Part shown: in pieces, positions 12,619 to 48,247 of the stretch
How the letters are laid out: every line of letters begins with the position of its first letter
Numbering within the stretch: position 1 is the stretch's first letter
Position numbers and translations under genes: made by a program
Notes under the pieces: generated by a model
Databases searched by the model: none
What the model was told of the DNA's origin: nothing
The model's input: only the letters and a program-made list of their open reading frames with translations
DNA from: Candidatus Dojkabacteria bacterium
GTDB lineage: Bacteria > Patescibacteriota > Dojkabacteria > B142 > JAFGMG01
Reading direction: 5' to 3'
DNA: 64,000 nt
Assembly (NCBI GenBank): GCA_016927655.1
Contig: JAFGMG010000005.1
Span: 75,991-139,990 of the forward strand

Positions 12619-15600
12619 TCATGGATTGCAGCTGCCGACAAATACACCATTCCCAAGTGTTGCATATTTCTCAATCCTGGCTGGCTTTGTGATGTTTTTA
12701 AAGATAGCATCATTTGTATGGATTTCGTATATTTCCCCTGTTTTTAGTATTTGTGTAACTTCAGATGTCTTTGGGTTGTAAAGTTTATGATCAGAATCAG
12801 TTTCGCAGTCCAAAGTGATAATTTCAATGGTTTCGCCTTTGATCCTGCTGGCAGGTGCGGCCTGAGCCACGCTTTGCGACGGCCTGGTGGACTGGTTATC
12901 TGGAATTTTATCAAAACCCAGATCGACAAGCGTAGTCCCCATCATCACAAGGGCAAAGGCAAGTCCGAAAGCTGCGGTCGGGTCAAACTTTTTAGTAAGA
13001 GTATCCACAAAATCATACAATGTTTTCATAAGAGACAATCCGGCCAGAACGTTTTTCAGAACATCAACATTTCCTAGAAGTTTATCGATTGCAGCACCGA
13101 TTTGTGAGCCGATGTATGAAATAACGGATCCCAATGCCACACCAAACAAAGGGGTTCCAATAATTGTTCCAATAAATCCTCCTGTGATGCCGCCTATTAT
13201 TCCTCCTGCTACCATAAATGTTCCAATTGGTGTCCCGGTAGCGTATGCGATTGCTATGCCAATACCAGCTCCGCTCAATGTTCCCAAGGCTGCAGCTCCG
13301 AGGTTGATCCCTTGTATGGCCGCCATGGCGCTGATCCCTCCGTATATGCCGCCGACATTAAATCCGAGTTCAGCACCCTTTAAATAATTTAGCCAGGATT
13401 TGAGATGAGTTGGAGACCAGTTTGCAGAGAAATAATCCAGTCCTTGGGCGCGCATTGCCGAGAGCTGACTATTGATCCATGGTGCTGCCGTTGCCAGGCC
13501 GACAAGTTCCATAAATGGGAGCTTGCCAAGTGCCATTAGCGTTGAACTTGTTGCAATTTTTGCAGACGCATTGACGGCGAGTCTCCCTGTTAGATATCTT
13601 GCACCAAGTGCTGCTCCCCCAGCAGTCGCTCCGGCTGCCAATGCAACCAATGGACTTGCGCCGAGCAATGCGGCAATAGCTGCTCCGCCGGCGAAGCCGT
13701 AAAAACCGGTATTTAGTGAACGGGCAAAGGTATACCCTCTTGTTGTTAGAGATCTAGAAGCGCTTAATCCTTGCTGTAAGCGCATTTCTTTTCCGAGAAC
13801 ACCGTGAGCTTTCTGAAAATCAGCAATTCTTCCAAATGGGCTGAGTTTTGTTGAATTTAATGTATCTGTGGTTAATTTCAACGCGGCACCTGCTCCACCA
13901 CTCAAAGCAGCGGCAGCAAGAATTGCTGGTGTCCCACCGCCCATCGCAAGTGCGAGTCCTGCGCCAATTGCACCGTATCTAAGCCCAGAGCCAGTTGCTC
14001 TTGCGAGTGCGCGAACCCCGTTTAGTGCTCTTTGAGCACCGATCAAGCCCTTTCCAACAACACCTCCCATTATCCGGGTTTTTGTATTGGTAATTGAGTT
14101 TGATAAAGCCTTAGCGCCGTTATTGAGGGTTTTCAAACCGCTCATAGTATATGCTCCATTCTGTACTATGCGTCTAACATTATTCAATGTATTGAGAATT
14201 TTACCCAAATATGCCTTTGCTCCAACTCCTACAGCCAGTAGTGTTTTTGATTTGGATTTACTTTTTCGCTCCTCATATTTTTTCTTGAGATTGATTGTTC
14301 CTAAATCATTGTAAAGCCGTTTAATACCAAGACCGCTAAAAGCTTTTCTTTGCGGCTGATACCTTTTGTATTTGACATCTCTGTCAAGTTTTCTGCTAAT
14401 CCTGTCTCCGATGCTTTCGTCAATTCTTGCCAATCCATTTCGAAGACGCCTCGGAAGAATGCTTATCTGCCGTCCTTTCTCGAAAGTCCATCTGCCAAGT
14501 CTTGTTTTTCCTGTCCATTGAACTATTCTGCTGGTTGCTATAGATCTGCCGATTCCCGCAACACCTTTTCTTCCAGCTCTACCGATAGCTCCTACTCCCC
14601 TGCCAGCTTGTTTCCCTAAAAACATAGTACCTTGTCCGGCTTTTCTGGGAAGATAGCCTAGTCCTGTCCTATAATACTGTCCTTTTCTACTCTCGTAGTC
14701 TTTTTTCCTGTTGCTGTACCAGTCCCTGATATTTACTTTTTCTTTCTTTTCGATCTTCTGCTCCCAAATGTTTTTCCCCTGTTTTAGCTCTTTTCTTGTA
14801 GCAGCGGCGCGTGCTTTTGCCCGTTCAAGTAGCATCTTGTCTGCCATTTCGCGAACCTGGTCCTGTGTCATCTCGTTTGATACAGAATTTAGAAGTCCAT
14901 AAGTTGACTGTAAATTCTTGATAGCTGCAGCTGCGTTTGGGTCGTCACTCTTTGCTAGTCTTGCCAGTGTGGTGCTATACGCAGCCTTTAGATTCTGCGG
15001 GGTTGCTTTATCTTTATTAATGCCGATTACATCATACGGATTGCTCCTCTCTCTTGCGATTTTCCTGACGTCCTCTTTTGAAAGATCTGCAGCAAAGTCA
15101 AATCCGCCTTGGATCAAGTCCCTTTCGATAAGTTCGCTATTGGATTGAGGCTTGATTGTTTCGGGTTTGTATTTTTGCAGATCCGGTCCCACCTGGTCAG
15201 CCATTCTTCCTAGTCTTTGTTCTGATTGCTCCAGATATCTCGCCTGATTTTGAAGTGTTGCGAATTTTTGTGCCTTTTGCTTACGGATCTCTTCTGGGGC
15301 AGCGTTTGGCTGGTTTTGGGAGAGTTTTTCGACAGCCTGAGTATAGCTCCCGAACTCCTGTTTGATCTTATTATACTTGTTTAATTCTTCCAGGTAAGTC
15401 AGATTTCTCTCCAATACTGCTTTTTCTCTTGTAAGTTGCTCTTTTCTATTTAAAATTTGTTCTCGTATGCTCGGATTCGCTTTTGCCCCGGCAAGTTCCA
15501 AATTGTTCTCAAGGGCTGCTATCTGGGTATTTAAATCTTGAAGCTGCTTTGGTAATTGCGTTTCTTTTGGTTTTGGAGGAAGGTTGGTTTCCTGTTCACT

Positions 15601-16068
15601 TGGCTTTATACTCTGTTGCTCTTCTTCTGGTGACTGTTTTTGAGGTTTAGCCTTTTTAGACCTCCTGTCTGTCCCTTGTCTTCTTAAGCGGGGTATTCTG
15701 GGAACTCTTCGGTTTTCGGCTACAACATCGTCATCTCCGCCGCCGCCGCCGGTTTGTTCTTTTGGTTGTTCCTCTTTAACTTCATTTTTAGACTCAGCCT
15801 CTTTTTGTGCTTCAATAAGTTCCTGTTTTGTCTGCGTGATCTCTGTTTCGAGACTTCTAAGTGTTTCCCGGTCTGTAATATTTATCCCCAGGCTTGCCAT
15901 AACTCCAGCTGTATTTGCTGACGGGTCTGAGACAACCCGCTCGATTTGATTCCTGATAGCTGATATTCTAAATGCACTAATTGTGGGATTTTGTCCACGT
16001 AATGCCTCCTCCACTCTATCGAGTAATTTATTAATATTTGGTTGTGCTTGTGCTGCTGGCAATGCCAT
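12619..16068 (-). CDS. Giant protein (1149 aa) with an N-terminal coiled-coil half and a C-terminal glycine-zipper hydrophobic half (tape-measure-like); function unknown
   Basis: The long ORF has coding-like composition. A charged coiled-coil region spans aa 1-460. Repeated G/A-rich amphipathic or TM segments span aa ~470-1060 (GAIGAGLALAMGGGTPAILAAAALSGGAGAAL...). A small ~80-aa soluble C-terminal domain ends it. Confidence 0.75.
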   Translation of the reverse strand: MALPAAQAQPNINKLLDRVEEALRGQNPTISAFRISAIRNQIERVVSDPSANTAGVMASLGINITDRETLRSLETEITQTKQELIEAQKEAESKNEVKEEQPKEQTGGGGGDDDVVAENRRVPRIPRLRRQGTDRRSKKAKPQKQSPEEEQQSIKPSEQETNLPPKPKETQLPKQLQDLNTQIAALENNLELAGAKANPSIREQILNRKEQLTREKAVLERNLTYLEELNKYNKIKQEFGSYTQAVEKLSQNQPNAAPEEIRKQKAQKFATLQNQARYLEQSEQRLGRMADQVGPDLQKYKPETIKPQSNSELIERDLIQGGFDFAADLSKEDVRKIARERSNPYDVIGINKDKATPQNLKAAYSTTLARLAKSDDPNAAAAIKNLQSTYGLLNSVSNEMTQDQVREMADKMLLERAKARAAATRKELKQGKNIWEQKIEKKEKVNIRDWYSNRKKDYESRKGQYYRTGLGYLPRKAGQGTMFLGKQAGRGVGAIGRAGRKGVAGIGRSIATSRIVQWTGKTRLGRWTFEKGRQISILPRRLRNGLARIDESIGDRISRKLDRDVKYKRYQPQRKAFSGLGIKRLYNDLGTINLKKKYEERKSKSKSKTLLAVGVGAKAYLGKILNTLNNVRRIVQNGAYTMSGLKTLNNGAKALSNSITNTKTRIMGGVVGKGLIGAQRALNGVRALARATGSGLRYGAIGAGLALAMGGGTPAILAAAALSGGAGAALKLTTDTLNSTKLSPFGRIADFQKAHGVLGKEMRLQQGLSASRSLTTRGYTFARSLNTGFYGFAGGAAIAALLGASPLVALAAGATAGGAALGARYLTGRLAVNASAKIATSSTLMALGKLPFMELVGLATAAPWINSQLSAMRAQGLDYFSANWSPTHLKSWLNYLKGAELGFNVGGIYGGISAMAAIQGINLGAAALGTLSGAGIGIAIAYATGTPIGTFMVAGGIIGGITGGFIGTIIGTPLFGVALGSVISYIGSQIGAAIDKLLGNVDVLKNVLAGLSLMKTLYDFVDTLTKKFDPTAAFGLAFALVMMGTTLVDLGFDKIPDNQSTRPSQSVAQAAPASRIKGETIEIITLDCETDSDHKLYNPKTSEVTQILKTGEIYEIHTNDAIFKNITKPARIEKYATLGNGVFVGSCNP

Positions 16069-16082
16069 GCGTATTTCTCTAA

Positions 16083-17273
16083 TTATAGAAAGTATTTATC
16101 CATCCTAAACCCACTTGTGCTAAAAACAAGCATGTCCTTTAGTGCCTGTTCACTCATTGTGAATTTGTAATATTCTTTTATTCCCTCAAGAAGAACTCCG
16201 GCGTTTGTAATGCTTTGGATCTCTAAAGTATATTCATTGCCTTCTTCGAGCTGTTCGTCTTGAGTTGCTTCTCGAATCTTTGAGGTGAAGAAATTACCGG
16301 GTCTAATAGCTTGTTCTATAATCACTTCGGTGAGTGCAATGAAAATGTGCTTATAAAAGTCATCTAAAGTCTCTTGATTGATTTTTGGATTGAATTCTCG
16401 TAATGAATCCAAGAGTTCTAGGACATATAATTCCATAGACATATCTTCGCGTGCTCTAAAGACGACCAGTTCTTCAAGCTGTCTTTTTTGAGCCATATCA
16501 ACTATCTGAGCAAGAGCATTGTTTTTGGCGTCTATTGGAGAAATTCCCCTTTCGATGTCACTATATGCAAGATGCATTAAATTATCAAACACTCTTTGTA
16601 TTAATTCTTCTGCAATTTGTTCGATTTGCCTACCTTGATTTATTACAAAAAAGGCTCTTTCTGGATAGTATTTAAGTTTGTTTGCTAACAGGCTATTTGA
16701 GTAGTTGAGTATGCTCAGGCCGGCGAGTTTTGATTTGATCAGATAAAATTTATTCTCGAAATTTATTGTCTCTTTGATGTCTATTTCCCCTTTTTTATCA
16801 ATTAGCACGGCGTAAGGGAGATCGACTTTAATTGTCTGCTTCAGATCCGTTTCTTTTATTCCCAGCTCTTTATATTGGGCCTTTTGAGCTTCGGTTTGGG
16901 GCGGGATGAAAAACTCTATTGCGTATTCAGCAAGTTCGGGAAGTCCCTGGTCCCATCTGGACTGGAAGTAGCTGCTGATTGTCTGAAGCCAGACTCTGGT
17001 AAGTTCAGATATATTTTCTTTCTCAAATTCAAGTACCGGGATTGAAACTGCCTCGTTTTTGGTGTTTTCCAGTACAGCTTTTATAAACTGGTCGATGGCG
17101 GCCTTGTTTTTTCTATATGTTTTTTGAAATCGTTTTTCAAATTTTGGAAGAAAGTTTTCGATTTCAAAATCAAAGGAGGTCGGACTTATAAATACAAAAG
17201 CTGATCTGCCTAATTTTTTGTAGGTCTGTTCATATAATTGATCGATTTGTTGTATTTCTTGAATATCGGACAT
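16083..17273 (-). CDS. Hypothetical soluble protein (396 aa)
   Basis: Long ORF tightly spaced with its neighbours (14 nt from the upstream gene). No recognisable motif. Confidence 0.55.
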   Translation of the reverse strand: MSDIQEIQQIDQLYEQTYKKLGRSAFVFISPTSFDFEIENFLPKFEKRFQKTYRKNKAAIDQFIKAVLENTKNEAVSIPVLEFEKENISELTRVWLQTISSYFQSRWDQGLPELAEYAIEFFIPPQTEAQKAQYKELGIKETDLKQTIKVDLPYAVLIDKKGEIDIKETINFENKFYLIKSKLAGLSILNYSNSLLANKLKYYPERAFFVINQGRQIEQIAEELIQRVFDNLMHLAYSDIERGISPIDAKNNALAQIVDMAQKRQLEELVVFRAREDMSMELYVLELLDSLREFNPKINQETLDDFYKHIFIALTEVIIEQAIRPGNFFTSKIREATQDEQLEEGNEYTLEIQSITNAGVLLEGIKEYYKFTMSEQALKDMLVFSTSGFRMDKYFL

Positions 17274-17302
17274 TTCATGTTTATCGTGCTTGTTGTTATC
17301 TC

Positions 17303-19108
17303 TTATTGTTGTTTAGCTTTCGGTCTATCTGTCCAGGCATCATATCGGCCTTTTGCGACTTTATATAGTGGCTGGGTTCCGCTTGCCAGACCAGATCGAA
17401 GAGAACCGGCAAATACTGTTTTGGCTTGTTCTTTCTTGAATTCTGCTGGTGTTGCAATTGCTTTTTCAAGGAAGTCCGGGATCATTGGTGTTGAAATAAA
17501 CAGTCCAAAGGCAATAAGATTTTTGATAAATTGTCCGCTGACTGCCCCGCCATCCCCAACTAATCTGGCAGTATTGGCCCCTATCAGAGAAGGGCTGTAA
17601 CCAAAATTGATTCCAAAGTTTAGATCGTTTGTTAAGACAATCATAAACAGAAATATTGCATAAACTGCAACAAATGTGAGAGATGCAGCAAAGAGTGTTC
17701 TAAAGTAGTTTGTTACTGCTTTCATTCCCTGTCCAGGAATAGCAATTGTCAACATAATAAATGGTGACACTATCGGGTAAAGTGCCAGGACAAGGTATTT
17801 GCTGACCAATTTCATAAATAGCTTAATACTTGCCATAAATGCGGCAATTGCAAGAACAAGGGTGAATAAAAGACCGATTAGTTTATCTGCTCCAGCAGCG
17901 TCTGCCGCTTCAAGTATTCTATCAAGTGCATTCACGACAGTATTGTTTGTCTGATCATTATCTGGAACAACCTTATCAAGTGCAATGCTTCCCTCATTCA
18001 CTCTAATATTTGCAGTCCCGAATACCCCCCATACACTCATTGCATCATCATCTGGCTGGAGGTGGTATTTGACCGGGTTGTTTGCGTCACCCAGGGTTGG
18101 ATTGTACTCAAGATCTGCTTTAAAAGCAGGTACATTTTCGAGTATTTCTAGTTTGTCCTGATCGGTTGCATCTACAAGTTGATCTATGAGTCCATTGTAC
18201 TCTTCTTGGTTTAGGCCAAGTGCGTCAGGTGTTGCATCGCTAACTACTTGTCTGAGTGTCTCGATGGGCGCATTTAGCGGGTCTATTGGGTGTGTGGTTA
18301 TACTGGTAGCATTCCACAGATCATATCCCGGTGACCAGGTATTTTGTACAAGCACCTGCTGGGTGACATTTGTTCCAATTGTAATGAAATCTATCGCAAG
18401 TCCTGAAAGTGCATAACTCAAAGTGATCATAATTAGAGCAATCACTATGTTTGGTATGGAATTCGCTATTGTTACCTGGGTTTGGCCCCCAAATGAGCTT
18501 CTAAACAAAACCATCAAGGCAACGATAATTATAATTATTATCATCGCAGCGTAAGCAATATTTCTAGATACTGCCCAGTAATCAGCTATCGGGTTTAAAA
18601 TTTCAAACCCCAGTCCGGGGTAGTAAATCCACGAGTCTTCTGGTGCGGCATAAGCGGTGTTTCCTGTGGTTAATTTGCTCCATTCGTTTTGAGCATAAGT
18701 AATTCCGCTTGCCGGAGGGTTTGCGTATAATTGTGCATTGAGACCGACGATACTTTGTATTGCGCCGGGTTTATAAAATGTAATAGGTTCCCCATTGTCA
18801 TCTAAAAGCAGTTCGCCGGTATTGCTGTCTATGACATTGCTTTTTCGTTTTACAAGAAATTTGAGTCCTAATTCGACCATTTTGACTCCAATACCTGTAA
18901 TTTCTTCATTACAAACTTGGGTGTCCGGGTCACACATGGTTGTGCTATCGAGCAGGTAATCCCCTGCTGCGGATTCGGGGACTGTGCTTTCAGTCAGGGT
19001 GTAGTCTGACGTTTCGTCGACGACCACAGCTTCAGCGTCGGTTGCAAATGTCAAAAACGACGTGGCAACAGTCGTAATCAAAAGAACCACAAGCAGTATT
19101 TTTTTCAT
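17303..19108 (-). CDS. Polytopic membrane protein with a signal peptide (601 aa); TrbL/VirB6-like topology, tentative
   Basis: A cleavable-looking signal peptide (MKKILLVVLLITTVATSFLTFATDAEA) leads into a ~150-aa exported N-domain. At least 6 hydrophobic helices follow, then a hydrophilic C-terminal tail. The VirB6/TrbL call rests on topology only. Confidence 0.55.
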   Translation of the reverse strand: MKKILLVVLLITTVATSFLTFATDAEAVVVDETSDYTLTESTVPESAAGDYLLDSTTMCDPDTQVCNEEITGIGVKMVELGLKFLVKRKSNVIDSNTGELLLDDNGEPITFYKPGAIQSIVGLNAQLYANPPASGITYAQNEWSKLTTGNTAYAAPEDSWIYYPGLGFEILNPIADYWAVSRNIAYAAMIIIIIIVALMVLFRSSFGGQTQVTIANSIPNIVIALIMITLSYALSGLAIDFITIGTNVTQQVLVQNTWSPGYDLWNATSITTHPIDPLNAPIETLRQVVSDATPDALGLNQEEYNGLIDQLVDATDQDKLEILENVPAFKADLEYNPTLGDANNPVKYHLQPDDDAMSVWGVFGTANIRVNEGSIALDKVVPDNDQTNNTVVNALDRILEAADAAGADKLIGLLFTLVLAIAAFMASIKLFMKLVSKYLVLALYPIVSPFIMLTIAIPGQGMKAVTNYFRTLFAASLTFVAVYAIFLFMIVLTNDLNFGINFGYSPSLIGANTARLVGDGGAVSGQFIKNLIAFGLFISTPMIPDFLEKAIATPAEFKKEQAKTVFAGSLRSGLASGTQPLYKVAKGRYDAWTDRPKAKQQ

Positions 19109-19157
19109 GCGCGTACTACATAAATTGCTTAGACAAAAACAGTATAGAGAGTAAATG

Positions 19158-19607
19158 TTAGGAGTGCAAGGGTAGATTCTTGTGCATCTTGATCAGGTCA
19201 TTGTAGTCATCGATGACTTGTTGGATATCCTCTTCTCCAATTCCGTGGCCTTGCATTATCATTTCTATGTCGTTTTGGTGTAGTTCTTTTACAATATCAT
19301 TTGAAGCAGAAATGAATCTGAGTAAGTAGTAATTCAGCAAAACGTACGTCGAATCATTATCTATTGTTTTGACGATAAATGCGCCAAGTTCAAGCATATC
19401 GGGATTTGTGCCGTGTTCTTCTGTGAATTTTTTGAGTTCCTCGATATCGAGATTTAGATCAAATGCTATTTTTATTACTTTGAGCAGATTTTCTCCGAAA
19501 AGCTCCGCAAAGCCATCTTCTGATATGTGGAAATACTCGTACTTCTCAATGTACTCGGTAGTAGTTTCGAAAAGTTTTTTGAATAAGTCTTGTTTTTCTT
19601 TTGGCAT
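19158..19607 (-). CDS. Hypothetical small acidic protein (149 aa)
   Basis: ORF in an operon-like arrangement with 17303..19108 and 19680..20315. No motif. Confidence 0.45.
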   Translation of the reverse strand: MPKEKQDLFKKLFETTTEYIEKYEYFHISEDGFAELFGENLLKVIKIAFDLNLDIEELKKFTEEHGTNPDMLELGAFIVKTIDNDSTYVLLNYYLLRFISASNDIVKELHQNDIEMIMQGHGIGEEDIQQVIDDYNDLIKMHKNLPLHS

Positions 19608-19679
19608 AATCAGAAATGCTTTGCTTTTTTAAATAATATAGTCAGGGTCAGATTTTCTAGCCATGTTCTTTTGTGGCTT

Positions 19680-20315
19680 TTAACGTTCAGGATCGACTTT
19701 TGCTAGCAAGCCATTCAATATATTGCCATATTGATTCTTATAGCTGTCAAATTTATCCTCTTGTTTGGTAGTATCAACAGTGAGCTTTGCGCCAACCATT
19801 GAAACTAGCGGTACAGTCCACGACAATCCTTTTGCCAATATTTTCCACATTGTCCTTCCCAGCCAGGTTTTTTTCTTATCTGCACCTAAAAGATTTTTGA
19901 TATGTTCGTAATTATCGTTTGTTTTTCCTTCTACTCTGACTTTTTGTTCTGCCATATTTAATGTTTCTTGAAGACCCCCATTTTTAAAATCGTCAATTGT
20001 CTCGTCAATTTGGTCATGGATATAGTTTTCTGTTAGTATGCCAAACTCCTCTGTCTGCATCATGTCAAAAGAAGCATCTCCAACTCTTTCTGCCAATGCT
20101 TGACCACGATTGGAAATAAATCTTCCAATCAAACCAGGCTCCTCTGCCCCAGTTAGTCCTGCACTTTCTAAGTCCTCTTGGTATCGCTTATATGCATCTT
20201 CACTCATATTCTGCTCCATCCATCTTTGAGCGCCACCTACGAATTTACCCGCGAGGTATTTGCCTACTAGCCCTGCTTTTGTTGTTTCATCGGCTGTTGC
20301 TGCTTCTGTTGACAT
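19680..20315 (-). CDS. Hypothetical protein (211 aa)
   Basis: ORF with coding-like composition; no motif. Confidence 0.45.
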   Translation of the reverse strand: MSTEAATADETTKAGLVGKYLAGKFVGGAQRWMEQNMSEDAYKRYQEDLESAGLTGAEEPGLIGRFISNRGQALAERVGDASFDMMQTEEFGILTENYIHDQIDETIDDFKNGGLQETLNMAEQKVRVEGKTNDNYEHIKNLLGADKKKTWLGRTMWKILAKGLSWTVPLVSMVGAKLTVDTTKQEDKFDSYKNQYGNILNGLLAKVDPER

Positions 20316-20453: not shown

Positions 20454-20723
20454 ATGAGTGGGCAGCAATCAGCAGCACAAGTATTGCAAAGTTTAGCGGA
20501 AGGGGGCACTGACGCTGTAGTGAGCAGCGAAGAGCGGCAGTACAAAATGGTCGAAAATGGCAGACGTGTGCCCAATCCAGTAATGAGAGCAGCTGCAAAG
20601 CAATTGAAGGAAAAAGGCTTCAGCGATGCAGAAATAGTGCAAAAAATCCTATTTTTCGACGAACTCGCCGAAAAAGACCAGTTGATAGATTATTTAAATA
20701 AGCAGGAAAAAGAGAAGAAATAA
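20454..20723 (+). CDS. Hypothetical small protein (89 aa)
   Basis: Short ORF immediately upstream of, and abutting, 20726..23014. Confidence 0.35.
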   Translation: MSGQQSAAQVLQSLAEGGTDAVVSSEERQYKMVENGRRVPNPVMRAAAKQLKEKGFSDAEIVQKILFFDELAEKDQLIDYLNKQEKEKK

Positions 20724-20725
20724 TT

Positions 20726-23014
20726 ATGGCAATACCAGGACAGCCAGGACAACCAGGACAACCAGGACCAACTGAAGCTATGCCACTTGGGGAGAGGAAT
20801 ATACAACCTGCTCAACAAGAAACTGCTGCAGGAGATAGTGTTGGAACTCCAGATGATCTTGCGAATTTGCTGGCCGGGAAAGAGGCTAGAACACAAGTAC
20901 AACCCCCACCAGTAGAAAATATTGAATATACAGAGGAGCAGAAAAGGAGAGATGAACTCAGGCCACAGGCCGATAAGGCTTTGGAAACTATTAGAAAAGA
21001 CATTTCATCAGAAAGATTTATTGGGGAAGCTTCTCCTCAGTTAGAAAAACTACAACGTGAGATAGATCGATTGAGCAATCTGCCAAATCCAACTCATGAA
21101 GATATAGAACAACTAGAAGGAGCCCTAAGTAGATATGACAATATAAAAGAGACGGCAGAAGACGGCGGTGAGAGAATAAGAGGAGATGCCTTTCAATCTA
21201 AAAAGTATGATTCGGGAGAAGGACAAGGTGGAGGACTTGATGAAGAGGAGAAGTCTTTCTCGCAGCTGATGAATGATTTTGATGATGCAGTTAGGGATGG
21301 AGATGTGGATTTGGCTAGGAAGTTGTTGCGCCAAGCTAATGGCAGTAAGGGATTCAATTCTAGACAGTATGATAATATGAGAGGTGATTACAGGGATTTG
21401 GAAAGAGCTACAAAAGCAGAAAAAAAGGCCGCTGAGGAGAAAGAAAAAGCAGACAAAGAGACTGCAGCTAAGAGGAGAGCTAACAATATTGTTTTGGATA
21501 TCGAAGAGAAGCCTAACCCAACAGCTAATGATACTAGGCAAGCTTTAGATGATATTGCTAATCTGGAAAATTTGCCTGACGAGCAACGTGAAAGTGCTAT
21601 GAGGAGAATTCGAACTGTTGATAATGCGAGAAAAGAGAAGGAGCGAAAGAGTCAGGAACGTAAAGTTGATAGAAACTTTCAATTGGAGAGGAATAATAAA
21701 TATATACAAGACGTTCTTCTCTCTCCAGATGGTATCAGCGTGGAAGACCAACGGGAGGCTTTTTATACAGCACAAGATATGGGAACTATTCCAGAAGATA
21801 AAAACTTTGATCAAGAAGTTCTTGATCCTATAAGAAGACAAGTTGAAGCAAGTGTGGTAGGGAAATATTCAGCAGGTGATTTGGCTAATCCGAATGCGGC
21901 TAAGGGGGAGTTAGATGCTTATGTTGCAGGTGGATATATTGAACAAAATGAGGCGGATCGAATAATGGGAAAAGTTTATGAAAGACAGGTGAGAATGGTC
22001 GACGAGTTATTGGCCAGGGAAGCTCGGGGAGAAGCCATCAAACTTGAGGATATTAAAGATGAAACCGTAAAAAAAGAATTTGAGAAGCGAGCAAGACAGC
22101 GAGCTGAAAAAAGTCCGGCAGTTTCGGATTTAATGGAGAAAGCAAAGAAGTTTATGAAGGGCAAAAGAGGGCTTGCTACAGTAGATTGGGTGAAGGGTAA
22201 TTTGAAAAAAGAATTAGCGAATTTAAGTCCAGTAGAAAAGCAAGTTGCAGAAGAGCAATTGAATGAATACTCACAGATGATGACGGAGTTGGATAAATCG
22301 ACAAGGGAATTGATTACAGAAAGTGGCGGGAACGTTTCAATCCCCGGAGTAGAAGGGGGTTCAAAGGAAGTAAAATATGATTTATTGAATATTGACGCTA
22401 TAGTTGCCAAGTTGAATCTTTCTGATTCGGCAAAAGCAAACATTAAAGAAGAGCTGAAAGCAGAACAACGAGTTAGAATTGCTGAAATGAAGATGCGTGC
22501 AAGAGAAGCTGCAGTGGCAATGGATAAACAACGTCGTGCAAATCTTGCATTACAATTAAGCAAATTGAAACATTATGGTACGGCATTAGCGATATTTGCT
22601 ATTCCTACAATTGGTCCGGGCTTGTTATTGGGCGGAGCTGGATTTGCTGCGGGAGGGATTGGTCTTGGACTTTTAGCAGGAAGTTTTACCGGTTCTTTAG
22701 CTTTGCTTCCAGCAGGAGCAGCAACATATATTTATGATCGATATTATGGGAGACGAAAAATAGATGAAATGGAATTGCAAGTTGATAAGGAAAAATTAGC
22801 GCTAGAAAAAGCGGAGAAAGAGATTAGAAGAATTGTTGCAGATGCTAGCTTGTGGTCGCGTGAGAAAGCTGCTGCCGCTTATGCAGCACAGACGGGCAAG
22901 GATGTAAATGAAACAATACAAACATATATGCAACTTACAAATGTGGATACGATTTCAGTTTTGAGAAGGGATCTAAACGCTAGTGCGGCTAGTCAATTTG
23001 CTGCGGCTGCTTGA
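20726..23014 (+). CDS. Coiled-coil protein (762 aa) with an N-terminal PGQ x3 repeat and a C-terminal glycine-zipper TM segment
   Basis: It opens MAIPGQPGQPGQPGP, followed by ~550 aa of charged coiled coil. A G/A-rich TM region (ALAIFAIPTIGPGLLLGGAGFAAGGIGLGLLAGSFTGSLALLPAGAA) and a ~110-aa tail close it. Confidence 0.7.
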   Translation: MAIPGQPGQPGQPGPTEAMPLGERNIQPAQQETAAGDSVGTPDDLANLLAGKEARTQVQPPPVENIEYTEEQKRRDELRPQADKALETIRKDISSERFIGEASPQLEKLQREIDRLSNLPNPTHEDIEQLEGALSRYDNIKETAEDGGERIRGDAFQSKKYDSGEGQGGGLDEEEKSFSQLMNDFDDAVRDGDVDLARKLLRQANGSKGFNSRQYDNMRGDYRDLERATKAEKKAAEEKEKADKETAAKRRANNIVLDIEEKPNPTANDTRQALDDIANLENLPDEQRESAMRRIRTVDNARKEKERKSQERKVDRNFQLERNNKYIQDVLLSPDGISVEDQREAFYTAQDMGTIPEDKNFDQEVLDPIRRQVEASVVGKYSAGDLANPNAAKGELDAYVAGGYIEQNEADRIMGKVYERQVRMVDELLAREARGEAIKLEDIKDETVKKEFEKRARQRAEKSPAVSDLMEKAKKFMKGKRGLATVDWVKGNLKKELANLSPVEKQVAEEQLNEYSQMMTELDKSTRELITESGGNVSIPGVEGGSKEVKYDLLNIDAIVAKLNLSDSAKANIKEELKAEQRVRIAEMKMRAREAAVAMDKQRRANLALQLSKLKHYGTALAIFAIPTIGPGLLLGGAGFAAGGIGLGLLAGSFTGSLALLPAGAATYIYDRYYGRRKIDEMELQVDKEKLALEKAEKEIRRIVADASLWSREKAAAAYAAQTGKDVNETIQTYMQLTNVDTISVLRRDLNASAASQFAAAA

Positions 23015-23061
23015 TACTAGAATAGTGAATTTAGTTTTTGTTTAGAATTTAGAAAAGTAAT

Positions 23062-23748
23062 ATGCCTACGACAAGTTATCTGATCGATCCGAATACAATA
23101 TCGATGCTTTTACAGATAGATGATGATACTGTTATTGAAAGCGAAATGCAGCAGTACTACTCTATCATTGACAAGGTTATGAAGGCTGGTGTGATTGACT
23201 ATATGGAAAGAAATAAATATGACGAAGATGAAAAAGAATTGATCAAAAAGAAGATGGATACTTATATATCCGAGCAGAATGAAGAGCTCAAGACAGACAA
23301 AATGCTCAAGACCTTTCTATCAAGCGAAGATTTGCAGAAGTTTCTTGCAGAGTTGATTAACCAGGTAAACAAAAGCTACTATGAGCAATATTATCCAAGA
23401 CTGGATCAGGCGAAACAGGATGAACTAGCCGATTATATTTTTGAAGCGCATCAACTTGAAAGGCAGACTGCAAGGCATATATTGAGTTTACTGGATTTTG
23501 TTGATGAAAAGAAAGTAGAAGAAGCTGTCAGGCAGGCAAAAGAGAATCCGCCGCAACCACAAACATCACAACAAGAATCAGTAATAGAGCCAATTGAGGA
23601 TAATGTGCTGACAGATGATTCGGGTACTTCTGAAAGTTCAATACAGCAGGCTCCTCAAGTTCAACCAATACAGCAAGAACAGCAACCAGAACAACCGCCA
23701 GCCCAGCCAACTCCTACTCCGCCGACGGTGAATCTTTCTCAGAGCTGA
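23062..23748 (+). CDS. Hypothetical protein with a Q/P-rich C-terminus (228 aa)
   Basis: ORF with a low-complexity QQEQQPEQPPAQPTPTPP tail. Its 3' end overlaps the convergent 23714..24208 gene by ~35 nt. Confidence 0.45.
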   Translation: MPTTSYLIDPNTISMLLQIDDDTVIESEMQQYYSIIDKVMKAGVIDYMERNKYDEDEKELIKKKMDTYISEQNEELKTDKMLKTFLSSEDLQKFLAELINQVNKSYYEQYYPRLDQAKQDELADYIFEAHQLERQTARHILSLLDFVDEKKVEEAVRQAKENPPQPQTSQQESVIEPIEDNVLTDDSGTSESSIQQAPQVQPIQQEQQPEQPPAQPTPTPPTVNLSQS

Positions 23749-24208
23749 GAAACTCATCAACAGTCTTTTTACCGAAACGTTTCTCCAGATTTTTCATAAT
23801 TTTCGGATATTCCGAGGCCTGCCTGATTTTTTCCATTAGATAATCGATTATTTCAAAGACGTCTTCTTTTGGCCCATCACCGATAAATCTGAAGAAAATC
23901 GCATTGTCGTATTCTTTCATCACATCCCTTGTTTCCTGCTCCAGATCATCGTATGAAGCCAGAAATAATTTTATCTGATCAAGTATGACCTTCTGCCCTT
24001 TTACCCGCTCCTCGACATTTTGCGCCTCGAACATTTTATTTATCTCCTCCATCCTGTCCGGTTCGTGTTCAGCGATATAGCCGACAATATGAGACATCAA
24101 AAACCTGGAAATAACATCATAATAATTGGCAATAAACGCCTCCTGTTCTGCAGGAGAAAACCCCATAGATTTCGTAATGATTTTTAGAGCAGTTTCATCC
24201 AAAAACAT
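23714..24208 (-). CDS. Hypothetical protein (164 aa)
   Basis: ORF directly upstream of, and co-oriented with, the 1784-aa gene. No motif. Confidence 0.45.
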   Translation of the reverse strand: MFLDETALKIITKSMGFSPAEQEAFIANYYDVISRFLMSHIVGYIAEHEPDRMEEINKMFEAQNVEERVKGQKVILDQIKLFLASYDDLEQETRDVMKEYDNAIFFRFIGDGPKEDVFEIIDYLMEKIRQASEYPKIMKNLEKRFGKKTVDEFLSSEKDSPSAE

Positions 24209-24232
24209 AATTCAATTATAAATTGTTAAATT

Positions 24233-27200
24233 TTAGAGTTCCGGCGGTTTGCTTGCTTCTTTAATTCTCTCTTCAAGCATTTCGAACATTTGTCCTGTTT
24301 TTTTGAGAACTAGATCATCAGTCGGATACCAGTCATCCGGTTCTTTGGTCGCTGCCAGATCCTCAAGCCAGAAAGTGATAACTTCAGTATAATATCTCAT
24401 TGTGGACAAATCCTGCTGCTGAGGGATCTCTCCTTGAAGTGCTGCCTGGAAAGCTCCAGCCATGGAAGTGGCATCTTTATATTTTTCTATAGCTTTTATT
24501 CTTCTTGTGTGCCATTTCTTTGCATTTTTTACAGCAGCCGGTTTGGCAAAGCCTCTAAGACCTGCTCCAGACATTACTATAAAAAGCCCTATCGGAGTTC
24601 CGGTCAATGCAGATGCAATTAATCCACCCACCATCATTTGGTTGGTCAGTCTTGTAAGCCATTTTGCAATACCTTTGTAGTATCCGGCTTTTTCGTAGCC
24701 TATACGTTCGTATTGGCCGATTTTTCTAAGTGCCATCAACCATTGATCCATCATATTCTGGCCATGCTCGTATCTGCCTCTAAAAGTGTCAATCCCTTTG
24801 GCAAGCATATCCTGCATTGTGGTAACTTCCTTAATAGGTCTTGGTCCTATTGCGTCCAGTTCCCTTCTATAAGGACTCGTCCAAGAAGGCTCTTTATAAG
24901 TTTTAAAATGCATAATATTTTCAAAATATGCGTCTTGTCCTCCGTGATTAGGACCAACTATTGCTTCTACTATTTTTGAAATATCTTCATGAGTAACATC
25001 AGGTTTATTTAAGGTTTCTTCAATAGCCGGCCATTTTGGATGTGGTATTCCTGAGGAAGAAGGCGGATAAAAGTTCATAGCAAGTCTTTTTACGTAATTT
25101 TTAAATGCAGTTGTGGCAAATCCTGAAGCTGCATCAAAAGTATCGTGGGTGTGTTTAACGCCCGTTGCATCTGTAAATGTAAATTGGGGTCTAAAATCAA
25201 TTAAATCCTGCCCTTCTTTTGTCCTGTGCATTTTATATCTTCGATCTGGCGGGAGACCTTTGACAAGAACGTCTTTCAAAACTTCGATCTGCATCCCGAG
25301 AAGAGCGTCTTTGACAGCGTCTGTTCGAAGCAGGACATTTTCTTCGTCAAAACCTTCGTCGATGTTTTTATTGCCGCCAAACCAGCTTACTGCTTTTCCC
25401 TGCCCACAAGCGGAGTTCAGCCTGATAAATCTAAGGTGCGGGTTCAATCTGTCTCCAACAAGCCTGCCCCAGTATTTTTGAACTTCGAGCATTCTGGCTC
25501 TGCTTTCATCCTCGTCTTTACTTAGCCAGGTTGTGTTTAATTGAACAACGCCATCCTTGATAATGAAATCACCACCGCCTTCGTACATCTTCTTTTCTTT
25601 ATTCCACCTTGCTTCTTTTAAAAGGACAGGTATCAGGTTCCCATTTTGATCAACTAATCTTTCTCCTGGTCGCACAGTGATAGTTTTAACTTGCCCCCTT
25701 TCTTTAAATGTTAATTTAACATCTTCATCTCTTGTATTTACAGCCCAGGCTCCTGCGTCCTGGCCTCTTAGCTCCTCTGCAATATGAATCATATTGACCA
25801 TGCTGTAGAGTGCATAATCTTCACGTATTGGATTTCCGTGTTTGTCCTTTCCTATTACTTTTTGTGCAAAGTGATCGTGCTCGTCTTTTAGTGTCATGTA
25901 GGCTAGATAGCCGTCTCTTGAATTGAGGAATTTTTTGAATTCTTTACCAACCTGGTCTCTCCAGCCGATCTTTTCAGCATCCTGTCCGGGTAGTCTTGAT
26001 CTAGTGACATACTTTTCATAATATTCACCGGCAGCTTCCTGCAGTTTTCCCGGCTTTTGAGCGATATACCTTCTAAGCGGGTTGACCATTCGAAGAAATC
26101 CCCGCCCGGATCCCATCCAAGGAGTGATGTCTCTTTTTACTTTTATCCCAAAGCGTCTGACCTCTGTTTTCCCTTTATCGTGTTCTTTGTATGTGAATTT
26201 CTCTCCACCTGGCACTAGAACTTTTTCGGCGTCTCCTCTGAAATTCCTAGAAATAAAGTTTAAAAATTCATGACCTCTTAGATCTTTAAAAAGGTAGGGG
26301 TCCCCTGCTGCTTTAGTACGTAGTTTAGCGAGTTTATCAGCACCTAGTATGTCTTTTTTGTCAACTACATCAGCAACGATATCCCTTGTACTTCGCATTT
26401 TGTCCTCATCTCTTTTGAATTTATACTGATTGGTCATAGGGTCAAAATCGAATTTTGATCCCATGAGTTCTCCCAGTATTCGCAGACGTTTAATTTCTCC
26501 AACACCTCCTTGACCTAAAATTTCGGCCATCCAGGCAAGGCCTTTTTTATGGGTAAATTCCTCGATATCCATTTGCAGACTTACCGGAGTCCTATCTCTT
26601 CCTTCTTCGATTCTGTAGGCATTTTGAATGCCTGGTAGATATTGTTTGAAAAGTCCCTCGTACTGGGTATTGAAATATTTAAAATATTTCGCAGGGTTTG
26701 CTCCAAGATAATCCGAGCCCATATAGTATTTACCAAGATCCCTGAGGCGCGGACTTTTACTTCTTGCAAGGCGCGCTCCTATACCCCTTCTAAATTCATA
26801 ATTTGTAAGCATAGGCCACGGGACCGGAACACTCCCAAGCAAGGTCGAGAATCTCCGCATTCCCGGGATCAAGTATCTAAGGGGGATAGCCCTGGCATCG
26901 ACATTGTATTCCCAGACATCATAAAATGCAGTGCCCTCACCTCCATATGTTGGCGGCGGCTTATCGCGGCCAATATACATCCCTCTTTGTATAGCTTCCT
27001 GATAGCCGGTGTTCATTGGTGAAGTGTCATCTCCAAGAGGTCCGATAAGCGGCTCTAAACCTGGGATTGCTGCATACTTATATTTGCCGGTTCTAAGGTT
27101 TTTGATTGCAGCAGACCTTTGTTCTTTGGTGCCGGCTCTTCCTGCTTCGTGATACATGTTTTCTGGATTTATCTGCGGGAGTCTATCCAGACCATATTTG

Positions 27201-29587
27201 CCGGCTAGAGCCAGGATGTATTCCATATTGATCCCCTCCATGCCAAAAGCCTGAATTTGACCAATAATATCCATGGCTAATTGGCTCCGAATCAAATCGT
27301 CGGTATTCATTGCATCATAAGTGTCAGCTCCAGCTTCCAGGGTGTTTTTATTGATTATTGCTTCAAGAGTCTTGGCAAGCAGGAACATATTCTCTCTTTG
27401 CGAGACATTTGCACTCTCTCCTGCTTGAGGTTCAAGCAGATATAGATCCTGCAGGTCGATTTTTGTTTTGCCGTCAATTTTGTGATCAAGCAGTTTTGAG
27501 ACAATTTCACGCATTGCCTCTGCTTCTTTTGATTGATCTCCATCGGGAAATAAAATTGCATCAAAAAGATAATCCTGCTGCTCGTGGGCAAGAAGAAGTG
27601 CCTGCTGCTTGAGATAGTCCGCTCTGTCCGGAAGTACTAGAATATTTACCGAAGGCATTGCTCGCTCATGAAATTTTGCGCTGAAAGCACGGTTAAAATT
27701 TTCCAGCGAAGACTCTTTGAATGTTAACCCAAGTCCATTTTTTGCGGCACTTCCAAGATCGACCCCGAATTCTTTCATCAAGGCTTCAAGTTTGTCTTTT
27801 ATTGGACCTTCCGCACCTCCTGCAGTATAAGTATTGATAGAAATTGTCATACCGGTGTTTGTCGGGATTACTTCGACAATCCCTGCATCATATAGTTCAT
27901 TTAAAACTTTGGAATCTGTAGAAATGTCTTTTCCGACAGCCTCGAGAACGTTTTTTACCGCGTCTCTGTTGATTTTCCCGTCAACGTCTTCTGGCAGGAT
28001 TTGCATAGTTGATGAATATTGATTTCTGATTTTTCGTGCTTTTGCAAGCAAATCGTTAGTGTCTTTACTGACACTTACACCTCCTTCTACTGATTTCAGC
28101 TCCCAAACCCCGCGCTCGTTTCTAAAGGCAAATCCATAGCTTGAAAGTGTCTCGTATAAATCATCTTCTGTATAATCCTCGGTATCAAGCATTTGAGCTT
28201 TCATCATGAAATCTTCTCTAACGGCAGCCATTCTCTCAGCGACTGGTCCTTCAAGTCTCCATCTTTCAAATTCTTCAATGTCTTGTAAAACCTCTTCTTC
28301 AGTATCAAGAGATGTTCTGGTGGCCGGATCGATTTCTCCTCTTCTTTCCGCGTTCATAACCTTGAGTCTGCCCACGACTTCCGGGTGTGAAAGGGTTTCG
28401 ATAAGCTGCAATTCGCGCTCGGTCAATGCAAGTGTACGGATTTGCGCCTGCCTTTGATCTTGTGTCATACCAGTCAGATTCAGCCCTCTTAACTTCAAAA
28501 ATAGAGAATTTATTTCCGGCTGGCTGCTGATAATCTTCTGCCATGTTGAGTATTCTTTGCCGAGCATTTTTGTCTGGGAGTCCCGGACCATTTCTCGAAG
28601 TATTTTTCCTTCTGTTGAGCCTAGTACTTCCAGCACTTCTTTTGTTTCGGTCCCGCCGCTCTCCGTTGTTGTTTTTATTTTCGTTTGGGCAAGAAGTGAA
28701 AATTGTTCAACCAGAAGTCCCTGCTTTACGACTTTGAGTTGTTCTCGGTCTTCATCTGTTAATTTCCTGTCTTTTTCTATACGATTTGTGATTTTCCCGA
28801 TTTTTCTATGATTTGCTACACGTTTGAGTCCGATTGTCTTCTGATCCCAGTTTTCAGGAAGGAGTCCTTCTTTTCTTGCCTTTTCGATTTGCGCAGCTCT
28901 TGAAAGAATATTGTCTATCTCCCCGGTTGGCCCATCCGCTAATTCTTTGGCTGATAATTGTTGTTTTGAAATTTTAGCCAGTTCCTGCTGTTTCCAGGCG
29001 AATTTTTCCTTACTCTCTCCAATGATTTCTTCAAGAAGTTCGAGTTCAACTTCCTCGCCTTCGGCTAATTTACCTTGACTTTTCTTTCTCTCCAGGGCTG
29101 CTTTACTCGCTTCCAATGCTCTGTGAGCCTGTTCGTGGATTCTAAGAGAATCTTCCAGAGCTTTTGCTCTTAGAGCTTCACCGTAGCCATCGAGATTGAA
29201 TTTTCTAAATAACCTTTCGGCAGCGACTTCGGCTTCAAAACCCAGCTGCATTGACGATTTTGTTTCACTGGCCCGGTCATCAAGGAGAATTTTTGCTTCG
29301 ATATTCGTTAGAAGTCTTTTCGCAAGTCTTTCGTAGTGTTCTCTTTTGGGTCTGTCTCCGGCTTTTAGAGCAGCGCCCTCGGCCGTTTTTTTTCTTGATT
29401 CACGGATTTTTCGGAGTTTTTCGGCTAAACGGCTGCTTCTATCAGTCTCTGATGTCTTTTTGATCTGTTCTGTGCGAGTTTGAGCTTCTTTCTTTTTTTT
29501 CTCCTTTGCTTCTCTCGCCTTTTTCTGATCTTCAGACTCACTGACTTGTTCGGGGCTGTCTTGTTCGGAAGTAAGACCTTCAAACAC
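24233..29587 (-). CDS. Giant protein (1784 aa) with an N-terminal K/E-rich coiled-coil region and a glycine-rich TM segment near the C-terminus; function unknown
   Basis: Uninterrupted 5.3-kb ORF. The first ~500 aa are highly charged coiled coil. The central ~1100 aa show no recognised catalytic motif, and no Walker A was found. The TM segment is MMVGGLIASALTGTPIGLFIVMSGAGL at ~aa 1650-1680. Confidence 0.8.
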   Translation of the reverse strand: MFEGLTSEQDSPEQVSESEDQKKAREAKEKKKKEAQTRTEQIKKTSETDRSSRLAEKLRKIRESRKKTAEGAALKAGDRPKREHYERLAKRLLTNIEAKILLDDRASETKSSMQLGFEAEVAAERLFRKFNLDGYGEALRAKALEDSLRIHEQAHRALEASKAALERKKSQGKLAEGEEVELELLEEIIGESKEKFAWKQQELAKISKQQLSAKELADGPTGEIDNILSRAAQIEKARKEGLLPENWDQKTIGLKRVANHRKIGKITNRIEKDRKLTDEDREQLKVVKQGLLVEQFSLLAQTKIKTTTESGGTETKEVLEVLGSTEGKILREMVRDSQTKMLGKEYSTWQKIISSQPEINSLFLKLRGLNLTGMTQDQRQAQIRTLALTERELQLIETLSHPEVVGRLKVMNAERRGEIDPATRTSLDTEEEVLQDIEEFERWRLEGPVAERMAAVREDFMMKAQMLDTEDYTEDDLYETLSSYGFAFRNERGVWELKSVEGGVSVSKDTNDLLAKARKIRNQYSSTMQILPEDVDGKINRDAVKNVLEAVGKDISTDSKVLNELYDAGIVEVIPTNTGMTISINTYTAGGAEGPIKDKLEALMKEFGVDLGSAAKNGLGLTFKESSLENFNRAFSAKFHERAMPSVNILVLPDRADYLKQQALLLAHEQQDYLFDAILFPDGDQSKEAEAMREIVSKLLDHKIDGKTKIDLQDLYLLEPQAGESANVSQRENMFLLAKTLEAIINKNTLEAGADTYDAMNTDDLIRSQLAMDIIGQIQAFGMEGINMEYILALAGKYGLDRLPQINPENMYHEAGRAGTKEQRSAAIKNLRTGKYKYAAIPGLEPLIGPLGDDTSPMNTGYQEAIQRGMYIGRDKPPPTYGGEGTAFYDVWEYNVDARAIPLRYLIPGMRRFSTLLGSVPVPWPMLTNYEFRRGIGARLARSKSPRLRDLGKYYMGSDYLGANPAKYFKYFNTQYEGLFKQYLPGIQNAYRIEEGRDRTPVSLQMDIEEFTHKKGLAWMAEILGQGGVGEIKRLRILGELMGSKFDFDPMTNQYKFKRDEDKMRSTRDIVADVVDKKDILGADKLAKLRTKAAGDPYLFKDLRGHEFLNFISRNFRGDAEKVLVPGGEKFTYKEHDKGKTEVRRFGIKVKRDITPWMGSGRGFLRMVNPLRRYIAQKPGKLQEAAGEYYEKYVTRSRLPGQDAEKIGWRDQVGKEFKKFLNSRDGYLAYMTLKDEHDHFAQKVIGKDKHGNPIREDYALYSMVNMIHIAEELRGQDAGAWAVNTRDEDVKLTFKERGQVKTITVRPGERLVDQNGNLIPVLLKEARWNKEKKMYEGGGDFIIKDGVVQLNTTWLSKDEDESRARMLEVQKYWGRLVGDRLNPHLRFIRLNSACGQGKAVSWFGGNKNIDEGFDEENVLLRTDAVKDALLGMQIEVLKDVLVKGLPPDRRYKMHRTKEGQDLIDFRPQFTFTDATGVKHTHDTFDAASGFATTAFKNYVKRLAMNFYPPSSSGIPHPKWPAIEETLNKPDVTHEDISKIVEAIVGPNHGGQDAYFENIMHFKTYKEPSWTSPYRRELDAIGPRPIKEVTTMQDMLAKGIDTFRGRYEHGQNMMDQWLMALRKIGQYERIGYEKAGYYKGIAKWLTRLTNQMMVGGLIASALTGTPIGLFIVMSGAGLRGFAKPAAVKNAKKWHTRRIKAIEKYKDATSMAGAFQAALQGEIPQQQDLSTMRYYTEVITFWLEDLAATKEPDDWYPTDDLVLKKTGQMFEMLEERIKEASKPPEL

Positions 29588-48236: not shown

Positions 48237-48247
48237 TAAATTGAAAT

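Follow-up and report, generated by a model that had tools for sequence, protein, structure and literature searches.

Giant orphan proteins around a divergent VirB6/DotA-like membrane protein in a Dojkabacteria chromosome

In type IV secretion systems (T4SSs), the polytopic proteins VirB6/TrwI and DotA serve as the channel or platform in the inner membrane, and the membrane protein families MMCAP2_0566 and Mbov_0396 of Mycoplasma integrative and conjugative elements (ICEs) come from wall-less or monoderm conjugation systems. Here, we analyzed a 64,000-nucleotide stretch of a Candidatus Dojkabacteria genome (assembly GCA_016927655.1, contig JAFGMG010000005.1, positions 75,991 to 139,990; hereafter the window), in which ten tightly packed open reading frames (ORFs) at 12619-29587 include one for a 601-amino-acid (aa) protein of VirB6/DotA-like architecture. 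The block is coding and conserved, nearly all of its proteins are unassignable, and it is a vertically inherited, chromosomal possession of one lineage of Dojkabacteria, within the Patescibacteria or candidate phyla radiation (CPR). The reading that we favor, holding it about as probable as not, is that of a T4SS-derived, lineage-specific membrane module built around a divergent VirB6/DotA-type protein, whose ATPase, if it has one, would be encoded elsewhere.

Many Patescibacteria carry a T4SS, and often they cannot do without it (PMC12102498). These bacteria depend on host cells, and in the sole species tested the T4SS is essential, its function being unknown (PMC12102498, PMC11665869); for Southlakia epibionticum, essentiality is credited to Wang et al. 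2023, as cited in PMC12102498. The systems are related to MPF_FATA (Quinonero-Coronel et al. 2025, PMC12102498). VirB6 is described as "scarce" in some Patescibacteria classes, "suggesting extreme sequence divergence", and among the entries of Table S1 of the same paper two Dojkabacteria assemblies are marked VirB4-positive (PMC12102498). The block has the phylum and a chromosomal instead of a mobile-element location in common with these systems, and the wider family of its 601-aa protein is found beside arrays of pilins of the T4SS_pilin family (PF18895), at some loci together with a VirB4/VirD4-like ATPase. Unlike them, it contains no pilin, VirB3, VirB4, TrsD or hydrolase gene and harbors orphan giants instead, and in the window it is not situated beside the origin-proximal genes recF, yidC and rpmH.

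The first-pass annotation of this DNA, made from the sequence alone, had proposed an undescribed envelope apparatus. That description holds in so far as the block is unassignable, envelope-associated and lineage-specific, but it overstated the independence of the block, whose anchor protein belongs to a CPR-wide family of the described Patescibacteria T4SSs (PMC12102498). Because this anchor ties the block to those systems, the block does not stand entirely apart from what is already known.

The VirB6/DotA-like protein and its wider family

The gene of the 601-aa protein is found at 17303-19108 on the minus strand. From N- to C-terminus, its product consists of a signal/transmembrane (TM) segment, an extracytoplasmic domain of ~160 aa, two TM helices, a loop of ~150 aa and at least three more TM helices. 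The signal peptide and six or more TM helices ascribed to it in the first-pass annotation were thus recovered as an N-terminal signal/TM segment plus at least five further hydrophobic helices, and hydropathy gave 6-7 TM segments in all orthologues. The AlphaFold2 (AF2) model, built from an alignment of 32 homologues, reached a mean predicted local distance difference test (pLDDT) score of 69.5, with values above 85 in the transmembrane core, and placed long TM helices at residues 172-255 and 407-539, separated by a loop of 150 aa. In a Foldseek search of this model against the PDB, ranks 1-4 were all TrwI/VirB6 of the R388 T4SS, and VirB6/TrwI and DotA were the best PDB structural matches by two methods. 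Like TrwI of R388 and DotA of the Legionella Dot/Icm system, the protein is polytopic with a large extracytoplasmic loop between TM helices, although it carries an additional extracytoplasmic domain at its N-terminus, and its gene, unlike theirs, does not have a VirB4, VirB5 or VirB2 gene alongside.

The only curated sequence families to match the 601-aa family were the two from Mycoplasma ICEs. In NCBIfam, the window protein matched the MMCAP2_0566 conjugal transfer protein family at an E-value of 2e-5, far under the curated cutoff (24 vs 90 bits), and Mbov_0396 matched the family at 8e-4; these matches were given by just two and one of the 32 family members, respectively. The ICE context of the Mycoplasma membrane proteins is lacking around the Dojkabacteria block. 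With regard to the traits of the VirB6 superfamily, we found a polytopic protein with at least five TM helices and a large extracytoplasmic loop, as well as fold similarity to solved VirB6-type proteins, and no sequence-profile match to the curated VirB6/TrbL models. Since the two independent structure searches agree with the weak Mycoplasma ICE matches while the curated profiles are silent, we name the protein VirB6/DotA-like, i.e. a putative, very divergent protein of this type as judged from its model, and not a demonstrated member of the family. The VirB6-like architecture noticed in the first-pass annotation is accordingly upheld by structure searches and by the gene neighborhoods of relatives.

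This family is common in CPR metagenomes, where at least 563 relatives were found. By analyzing the neighborhoods at 44 metagenome loci that span 9 kb or more, we found T4SS_pilin genes, one to six per locus, in 43. A representative of the pilin family passes the Pfam model PF18895 with 30 bits against a cutoff of 26.6. An orphan of ~1200 aa without signal peptide adjoins the VirB6-like gene in at least 34 of the 44 loci, and a C-terminal membrane anchor was predicted for five of nine such orphans that were checked. Less common neighbors were an orphan of ~170 aa (28 loci), an enlarged ClpB-like protein (17 loci) and a T4SS ATPase of 716-724 aa matching DUF87/HerA, TrwB_AAD_bind and TraG-D_C (five loci). 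Many of the loci adjoin recF, yidC, rpmH and jag, a setting that fits the published chromosomal, origin-proximal T4SS of Patescibacteria (PMC12102498). Owing to the pilin and ATPase neighbors and to this origin-proximal setting, the 601-aa family as a whole is linked to T4SSs. No T4SS genes are found beside the Dojkabacteria copies.

The cluster of the other CPR lineages (L003, L005 and L015-L094), made up of the VirB6-like protein, the ~1200-aa giant, the ~170-aa protein and pilins, can be compared directly with the block. The VirB6-like proteins are homologous, with 20-25% identity and hidden Markov model (HMM) E-values of 1e-82 to 1e-86 after iteration, and in both cases a very large protein without signal peptide and with a C-terminal membrane anchor is adjacent. 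The giants and small partners, on the other hand, have no detectable homology even at the profile-profile level, and the pilin genes are missing from the Dojkabacteria version. Its partner set instead comprises a giant of 1600-1840 aa, a glycine-zipper protein, a 396-aa protein, one or two further hairpin-anchored coiled-coil proteins and small acidic proteins, all of which, as far as sequence comparison reaches, are genuine orphans that differ from the partner families of the other CPR. In Dojkabacteria, a VirB6-type channel protein would have survived in a guise that escapes standard profiles, which may partly account for the scarcity of VirB6 in some CPR classes, and the proteins around the channel would have been replaced wholesale between lineages by giant orphans. 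As a separate observation, the ClpB-like AAA+ protein of the other CPR is unusually long, at ~1260 aa with large insertions, e.g. in L003:4525-8331, L005:4914-8762 and 15 further loci.

A number of results weigh against a T4SS origin of the Dojkabacteria module. No homologue of VirB4, VirD4, VirB2, VirB3, VirB8 or VirB1 was found in the block, nor anywhere else in the 64-kb window, nor in the ~8 kb of the source contig beyond either end, where only housekeeping genes are found. Over the same extent Pfam identified no ATPase of the VirB4 type that a complete T4SS requires, none of the ten block proteins has a Walker A motif, and neither a PF18895 pilin nor VirB3/PrgI or TrsD was detected by Pfam near the channel gene. 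HMMs of the pilin (built from 54 CPR neighbors), of the ~170-aa protein and of the ~1200-aa giant had no match either in the window or at any Dojkabacteria locus, the pilin search covering ORFs of at least 40 aa at E < 1. Comparisons of the two partner sets by BLASTP and by profile-profile alignment with hhalign were likewise negative, the hhalign positive control (c3 vs c17) reaching a probability of 99.8%. Regarding the channel protein itself, the Foldseek matches to TrwI/VirB6 have weak E-values (0.14-0.6) and sequence identities of 10-14%, Pfam TrbL/VirB6 went undetected in all 32 family members, and a profile search of PDB sequences with the family was negative. Finally, the assembly, the topology and the roles of the partner proteins, as proposed below, are matters of inference.

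The lack of an ATPase or pilin in or near the block, and the orphan status of all partner families with their want of homology to the partners in other CPR, would suit an independent, undescribed membrane or cytoskeletal apparatus that merely recruited a VirB6-like protein and needs neither a T4SS ATPase nor a pilus. We hold such an origin to be rather unlikely, as the family of the sole recognizable component is elsewhere almost always found beside T4SS pilin genes. With a hidden VirB6 relative among giants that are found almost nowhere else, the cluster is therefore probably a lineage-specific offshoot of a secretion machine used to live on hosts.

Conservation and chromosomal setting of the block

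The coordinates and lengths of the ten ORFs agree with those of the first-pass annotation. Seven genes lie on one strand, and a segment of three genes, encoding proteins of 89, 762 and 228 aa (20454-23748), lies on the other. This gives a divergent gene pair at 20315/20454 and a convergent, overlapping pair at 23748/23714, corresponding to the strand switches already placed around 20.4 kb and 23.7 kb. That the ten ORFs belong to no recognizable family was borne out by the library scans, in which Pfam and PHROGs gave nothing significant for any of the ten proteins, NCBIfam gave the one weak match of the 601-aa protein, and no PADLOC model matched, the sole trace being the 164-aa protein (E 0.001, no domain passing). 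The earlier count of five small soluble proteins left out the mid-sized cytoplasmic protein of 396 aa, which is neither giant nor small. A promoter and terminator scan carried no information, as its counts were close to, or lower than, the ones obtained from shuffled sequence.

In a Candidatus Dojkabacteria metagenome-assembled genome (MAG), on a 144-kb contig, the 601-aa and 1784-aa proteins are annotated, with identical sequences, as hypothetical proteins JW978_02190 and JW978_02225, and the remaining window is an ordinary CPR chromosome with genes for e.g. CTP synthase, Mur ligase, pyruvate:ferredoxin oxidoreductase, RuBisCO and tRNA synthetases. The synteny check suggested in the first-pass annotation gave a positive answer, as both the block and its flanks are conserved in at least seven other contigs (L001/L002, L006, L008, L009, L010/L011 and L013) with orthologues at 30-60% amino-acid identity to the window copies. 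MAGs that carry the block besides the source assembly are GCA_964391325.1, GCA_054040455.1 and GCA_054022675.1. Constant neighbors are He_PIG, solute-binding protein (SBP) and DUF3048 genes on one side and Cob_adeno_trans (cobalamin adenosyltransferase), cyclophilin, Bro-N and POR genes on the other. Clear orthologues were identified by HMMER for six proteins (1784, 164, 89, 601, 396 and 1149 aa), the 762-aa and 228-aa proteins have counterparts by position and architecture only, and no relatives were detected for the 149-aa and 211-aa proteins. ORFs of 1600-1840 aa stay intact across lineages that share just 25-43% identity. The genes are consequently real, since for six of the ten there are clear orthologues in six or more other contigs and the long ORFs are intact across divergent lineages. 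A reduced core is found in the distant locus L014, consisting of a giant, a 143-aa partner, a VirB6-like protein, a 985-aa protein and a 1149-like protein, the gene of the latter being followed by a He_PIG homologue. A scan of GTDB genomes using the close alignment returned two loci.

Certain parts of the cluster vary between lineages. The 89-762-228 segment is inverted in the window relative to L008, L009 and L010, where all genes of the cluster run in the same direction. The middle of the cluster evolves fast and gains and loses genes, some relatives having additional ones for 437-447, 760 or 1365 aa. In one MAG assembly (L001:12779-16263), the 1149-aa orthologue is split into 471 and 658 aa and a 408-aa gene into 275 and 197 aa, whereas both genes are whole in another assembly of nearly identical sequence (L002:8229-11558); the splits stem either from frameshifts in the assembly or from pseudogenisation at the level of the strain. 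Just upstream of the cluster, a gene pair for an extracytoplasmic function (ECF)-type sigma-70 factor and a PEGA-domain protein is found at L011:6830-7528, L013:2396-2971 and L014:6188-6730, and not at the equivalent position in the window; the sigma factor could regulate the cluster in those three genomes. A Bro-N domain protein, encoded at 31027-32085 on the plus strand, recurs at the same spot in the orthologous neighborhood of L011, and its gene is here a resident of the chromosome and does not point to a prophage.

It had also been suggested that the block might be a highly degenerate mobile element, i.e. the decayed remnant of a prophage tail module or of a conjugative element. The glycine-zipper region of the 1149-aa family does give a match of 47 residues (E 4.5e-4) to a phage tape measure protein, the VirB6-like protein has its weak Mycoplasma ICE matches, and a Bro-N protein is nearby. 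These 47 residues are, however, all that the matching sequence amounts to, so that the label TMP-like, given in the first-pass annotation, is retained for one glycine-zipper match only. The Bro-N gene is itself part of the conserved neighborhood. Neither the library scans nor the motif search identified a Walker-A ATPase, relaxase, integrase, terminase, capsid or portal gene in the block, as had been noted before, and there is no coupling protein domain, tail gene or PHROG membership. The window contains no tRNA, no att-like direct repeats of note flank the block, and its GC content does not depart sharply from that of the flanks. Relatives of the block were found in none of IMG/VR, the INPHARED phages and the PLSDB plasmids, and the same chromosomal position and flanks recur in relatives at 30-60% identity. 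The conservation of the block, its fixed chromosomal position and the lack of relatives in these three collections exclude a prophage or ICE, and the synteny with the same housekeeping neighbors on both sides indicates vertical inheritance; a mobile origin, even in a degenerate form, is barely credible.

The giant proteins and their small partners

The largest product of the block is a giant of 1784 aa (24233-29587, minus strand, as read from the ORF and its sequence). Its N-terminus is a Lys/Glu-rich coiled-coil region of ~440 aa, which is followed by a large orphan alpha/beta and helical region, by a hydrophobic segment at aa ~1653-1685 that is situated at the tip of a long helical hairpin, and by a conserved helical tail of ~100 aa; there is no signal peptide. 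Orthologues of 1600-1840 aa are found in L001, L006, L008, L010/L011, L013 and L014. An exhaustive HMMER search with the C-terminal 1185 aa of the giant against 1.84 billion representative proteins found 13 relatives, nearly all of 1600-1840 aa, which agrees with the lineage-specific character proposed in the first-pass annotation. A word-indexed homologue search returned the giant itself and, in a second case, itself and one other protein, the index probably being saturated by low-complexity words. The AF2 model has a mean pLDDT of 62, with 70-89 over the last ~520 residues, and consists of an alpha/beta region and then the long helical hairpin (model residues 986-1118) with the hydrophobic segment near its tip. 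No significant PDB match was obtained for the giant by sequence, either single or profile, nor for its model by Foldseek.

Directly after the giant, without exception, comes the gene of an acidic helical protein of 164 aa (23714-24208, minus strand), which is conserved in this place in L001, L006, L008, L010, L013 and L014. Asp and Glu make up about 21% of its sequence, and it may be a partner or chaperone of the giant. It may also be a distant paralogue of the 228-aa family, to judge from an hhalign probability of 47% (E 2e-4).

The second large protein, a coiled-coil protein of 762 aa (20726-23014, plus strand), has a late hydrophobic hairpin, glycine-rich and ~50 residues long, at aa ~610-665, about 100 aa from the C-terminus. 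Like the giant, it has a single hydrophobic segment about 110-140 residues from its C-terminus. In the relatives, its place is taken by 688-1111-aa coiled-coil proteins that share the late TM segment but to which HMMER detected no sequence similarity. A soluble 89-aa protein (20454-20723, plus strand) is encoded directly upstream of the coiled-coil gene, without exception, and has orthologues in L001/L002, L006 (two copies) and L010. Downstream is the gene of the acidic helical 228-aa protein (23062-23748, plus strand), placed after the 762-aa gene just as its counterparts are placed after the 688-1111-aa coiled-coil genes. These counterparts are genes for 167-243 aa that precede the VirB6-like gene in the relatives (L006:9255-9848, L008:9281-9922, L009:7406-8137 and L010:9362-9865). 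The Pro/Gln-rich tail of the 228-aa protein ends in VNLS, and the family has the motif VNL[ST] at the extreme C-terminus, which could be a docking or recognition signal; the hhalign match between the 228-aa protein and that family covers just 11 columns (E 8e-5).

Upstream of the VirB6-like gene are two genes without detected homologues, encoding a 211-aa protein with a weakly hydrophobic C-terminal segment (19680-20315, minus strand) and an acidic helical protein of 149 aa (19158-19607, minus strand). By position only, the former may be the counterpart of variable genes for 328-447 aa in the relatives. The latter may correspond to a 143-154-aa "MFNF" family, an equivalence of position and composition only because the hhalign comparison with that family was negative. 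A pairing of a large anchored protein with a subsequent small acidic helical one thus recurs in the block (1784 then 164 aa, 762 then 228 aa and 211 then 149 aa), and in the relatives the 328-447-aa gene is likewise paired with the 143-154-aa gene.

The other end of the block is occupied by the 396-aa and 1149-aa proteins. The former, a cytoplasmic orphan (16083-17273, minus strand), is encoded directly downstream of the VirB6-like gene, without exception, and its orthologues, of 383-397 aa and with 33-43% identity, occur in all close relatives; Pfam gave no match. The 1149-aa protein (12619-16068, minus strand, as read from the ORF and its sequence) has orthologues at all related loci, even in the distant L014, for which hhalign gave a probability of 98.7%. 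It consists, from N- to C-terminus, of a coiled coil, a J-like segment, a Gly/Arg/Lys-rich region, a glycine-zipper block of TM helices at aa ~690-1050 and a C-terminal domain of ~100 aa (~1050-1149) with two invariant cysteines, C1088 and C1147. Single and profile searches of PDB sequences with either family gave nothing significant. The J-like segment (aa ~343-395) matched DnaJ (PF00226) in the window copy only, at E 0.002 and 18.5 bits vs a cutoff of 27.8, and its HPD position reads SDDP (S.DP in the orthologue consensus). A J-domain was hence rejected, the match being below the gathering cutoff and without HPD, and on sequence grounds the segment would at most be a degenerate J-like fold.

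Next to the 1149-aa gene, and outside the coordinates of the first-pass annotation, Pfam identified a He_PIG type I membrane protein of 649 aa (10641-12590, plus strand) with Ig-like ectodomains and an acidic cytoplasmic tail of ~150 aa. Its gene is a neighbor of the 1149-aa orthologue wherever the cluster was found, the distant L014 among these loci (E 2e-39), and in L006 the two genes point the same way; the protein may be part of the module as a surface component.

Since the giants have no signal peptides, carry positive charges on both sides of their hydrophobic segments and are modeled with helical hairpins, most of their mass would be cytoplasmic and hairpin-anchored in the membrane, not surface-exposed. 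Outward-facing parts would be limited to three, namely the VirB6-like protein with its loops, the Cys-pair domain of the 1149-aa protein and the neighboring He_PIG protein. For a T4SS-derived module, we propose an arrangement in which the VirB6-like protein would oligomerise into a membrane channel or platform, with the glycine-zipper protein and the Ig-like neighbor supplying outward-facing parts, the giant coiled-coil proteins possibly forming a cytoplasmic scaffold on the inner face, and the small acidic proteins presumably acting as partners or chaperones of the large ones. The module would be powered by a VirB4-type ATPase whose gene would lie in another part of the genome. By analogy with what has been proposed for the essential T4SS of Saccharibacteria, the likely role would be host-cell contact or exchange, and the giant orphans are candidates for lineage-specific, perhaps host-specific, parts of the CPR host-interaction machinery. 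Regardless of mechanism, several new protein families, of about 1700, 1150, 390 and 160 aa, are defined by the block.

The same hairpins permit another assignment of roles, in which the hairpin proteins of 1784, 762 and perhaps 211 aa would be exported substrates or translocators that insert their hairpins into the host membrane, the 164-, 228- and 149-aa proteins their chaperones, and the VirB6-like and 1149-aa proteins the channel. This would suit the recurring order of large hairpin protein and small acidic protein, the position of the hydrophobic segment at the hairpin tip of the AF2 model, as in alpha-pore-forming toxins and type III secretion system (T3SS) translocators, and the fast evolution and variable gene content of the cluster middle. 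Foldseek also gave weak matches to AhlB and colicin, but these fall short of significance (E > 0.5) and are of the kind that any long helical hairpin gives. The positive charges flanking the hairpins suit an ordinary cytoplasmic-side membrane anchor equally well, the core and C-terminus of the giant are well conserved for an effector, and we know of no precedent for the export of proteins of 1600-1800 aa without a nearby ATPase. Such an export function strikes us as improbable.

The composition of the partner proteins bears in turn on the independent apparatus considered above. The terminal organelle of Mycoplasma contains giant coiled-coil proteins, Pro-rich acidic proteins and a J-domain protein, and one possibility is that the block encodes a polar organelle for attachment or host contact, composed of hairpin-anchored giant coiled-coils in a similar way. 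The giant coiled-coils, the Pro/Gln-rich acidic tails, the possible J-like segment and the conserved Ig-like neighbor would be consistent with such a make-up. The comparison is, however, one of composition and not of homology, and the J-like signal is weak, being confined to one orthologue (E 0.002) and lacking the HPD motif. It is similarly doubtful, in our estimation, that the Dojkabacteria machine is an undescribed, lineage-specific host-contact or feeding organelle in place of a conventional T4SS, i.e. a VirB6/DotA-type channel without pilins or an ATPase in cis, combined with giants, chaperone-like partners, a glycine-zipper protein and an Ig-like protein.

Other features of the window

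Outside the block, two further genes of the window deserve mention. A protein of 3589 aa is encoded at 37467-48236 on the plus strand, with an N-terminal subtilase domain (S8), FG-GAP repeats, DUF6531 and 34 RHS repeats. At the 3' end of its gene and in the region just downstream (47000-50000), the GC content falls to 32-35%, a pattern compatible with a polymorphic toxin tip and an immunity cassette. Lastly, a homologue of the RuBisCO large subunit is encoded at 58995-60410 on the plus strand and belongs to the form II/III type, which is typical of nucleotide salvage in CPR.

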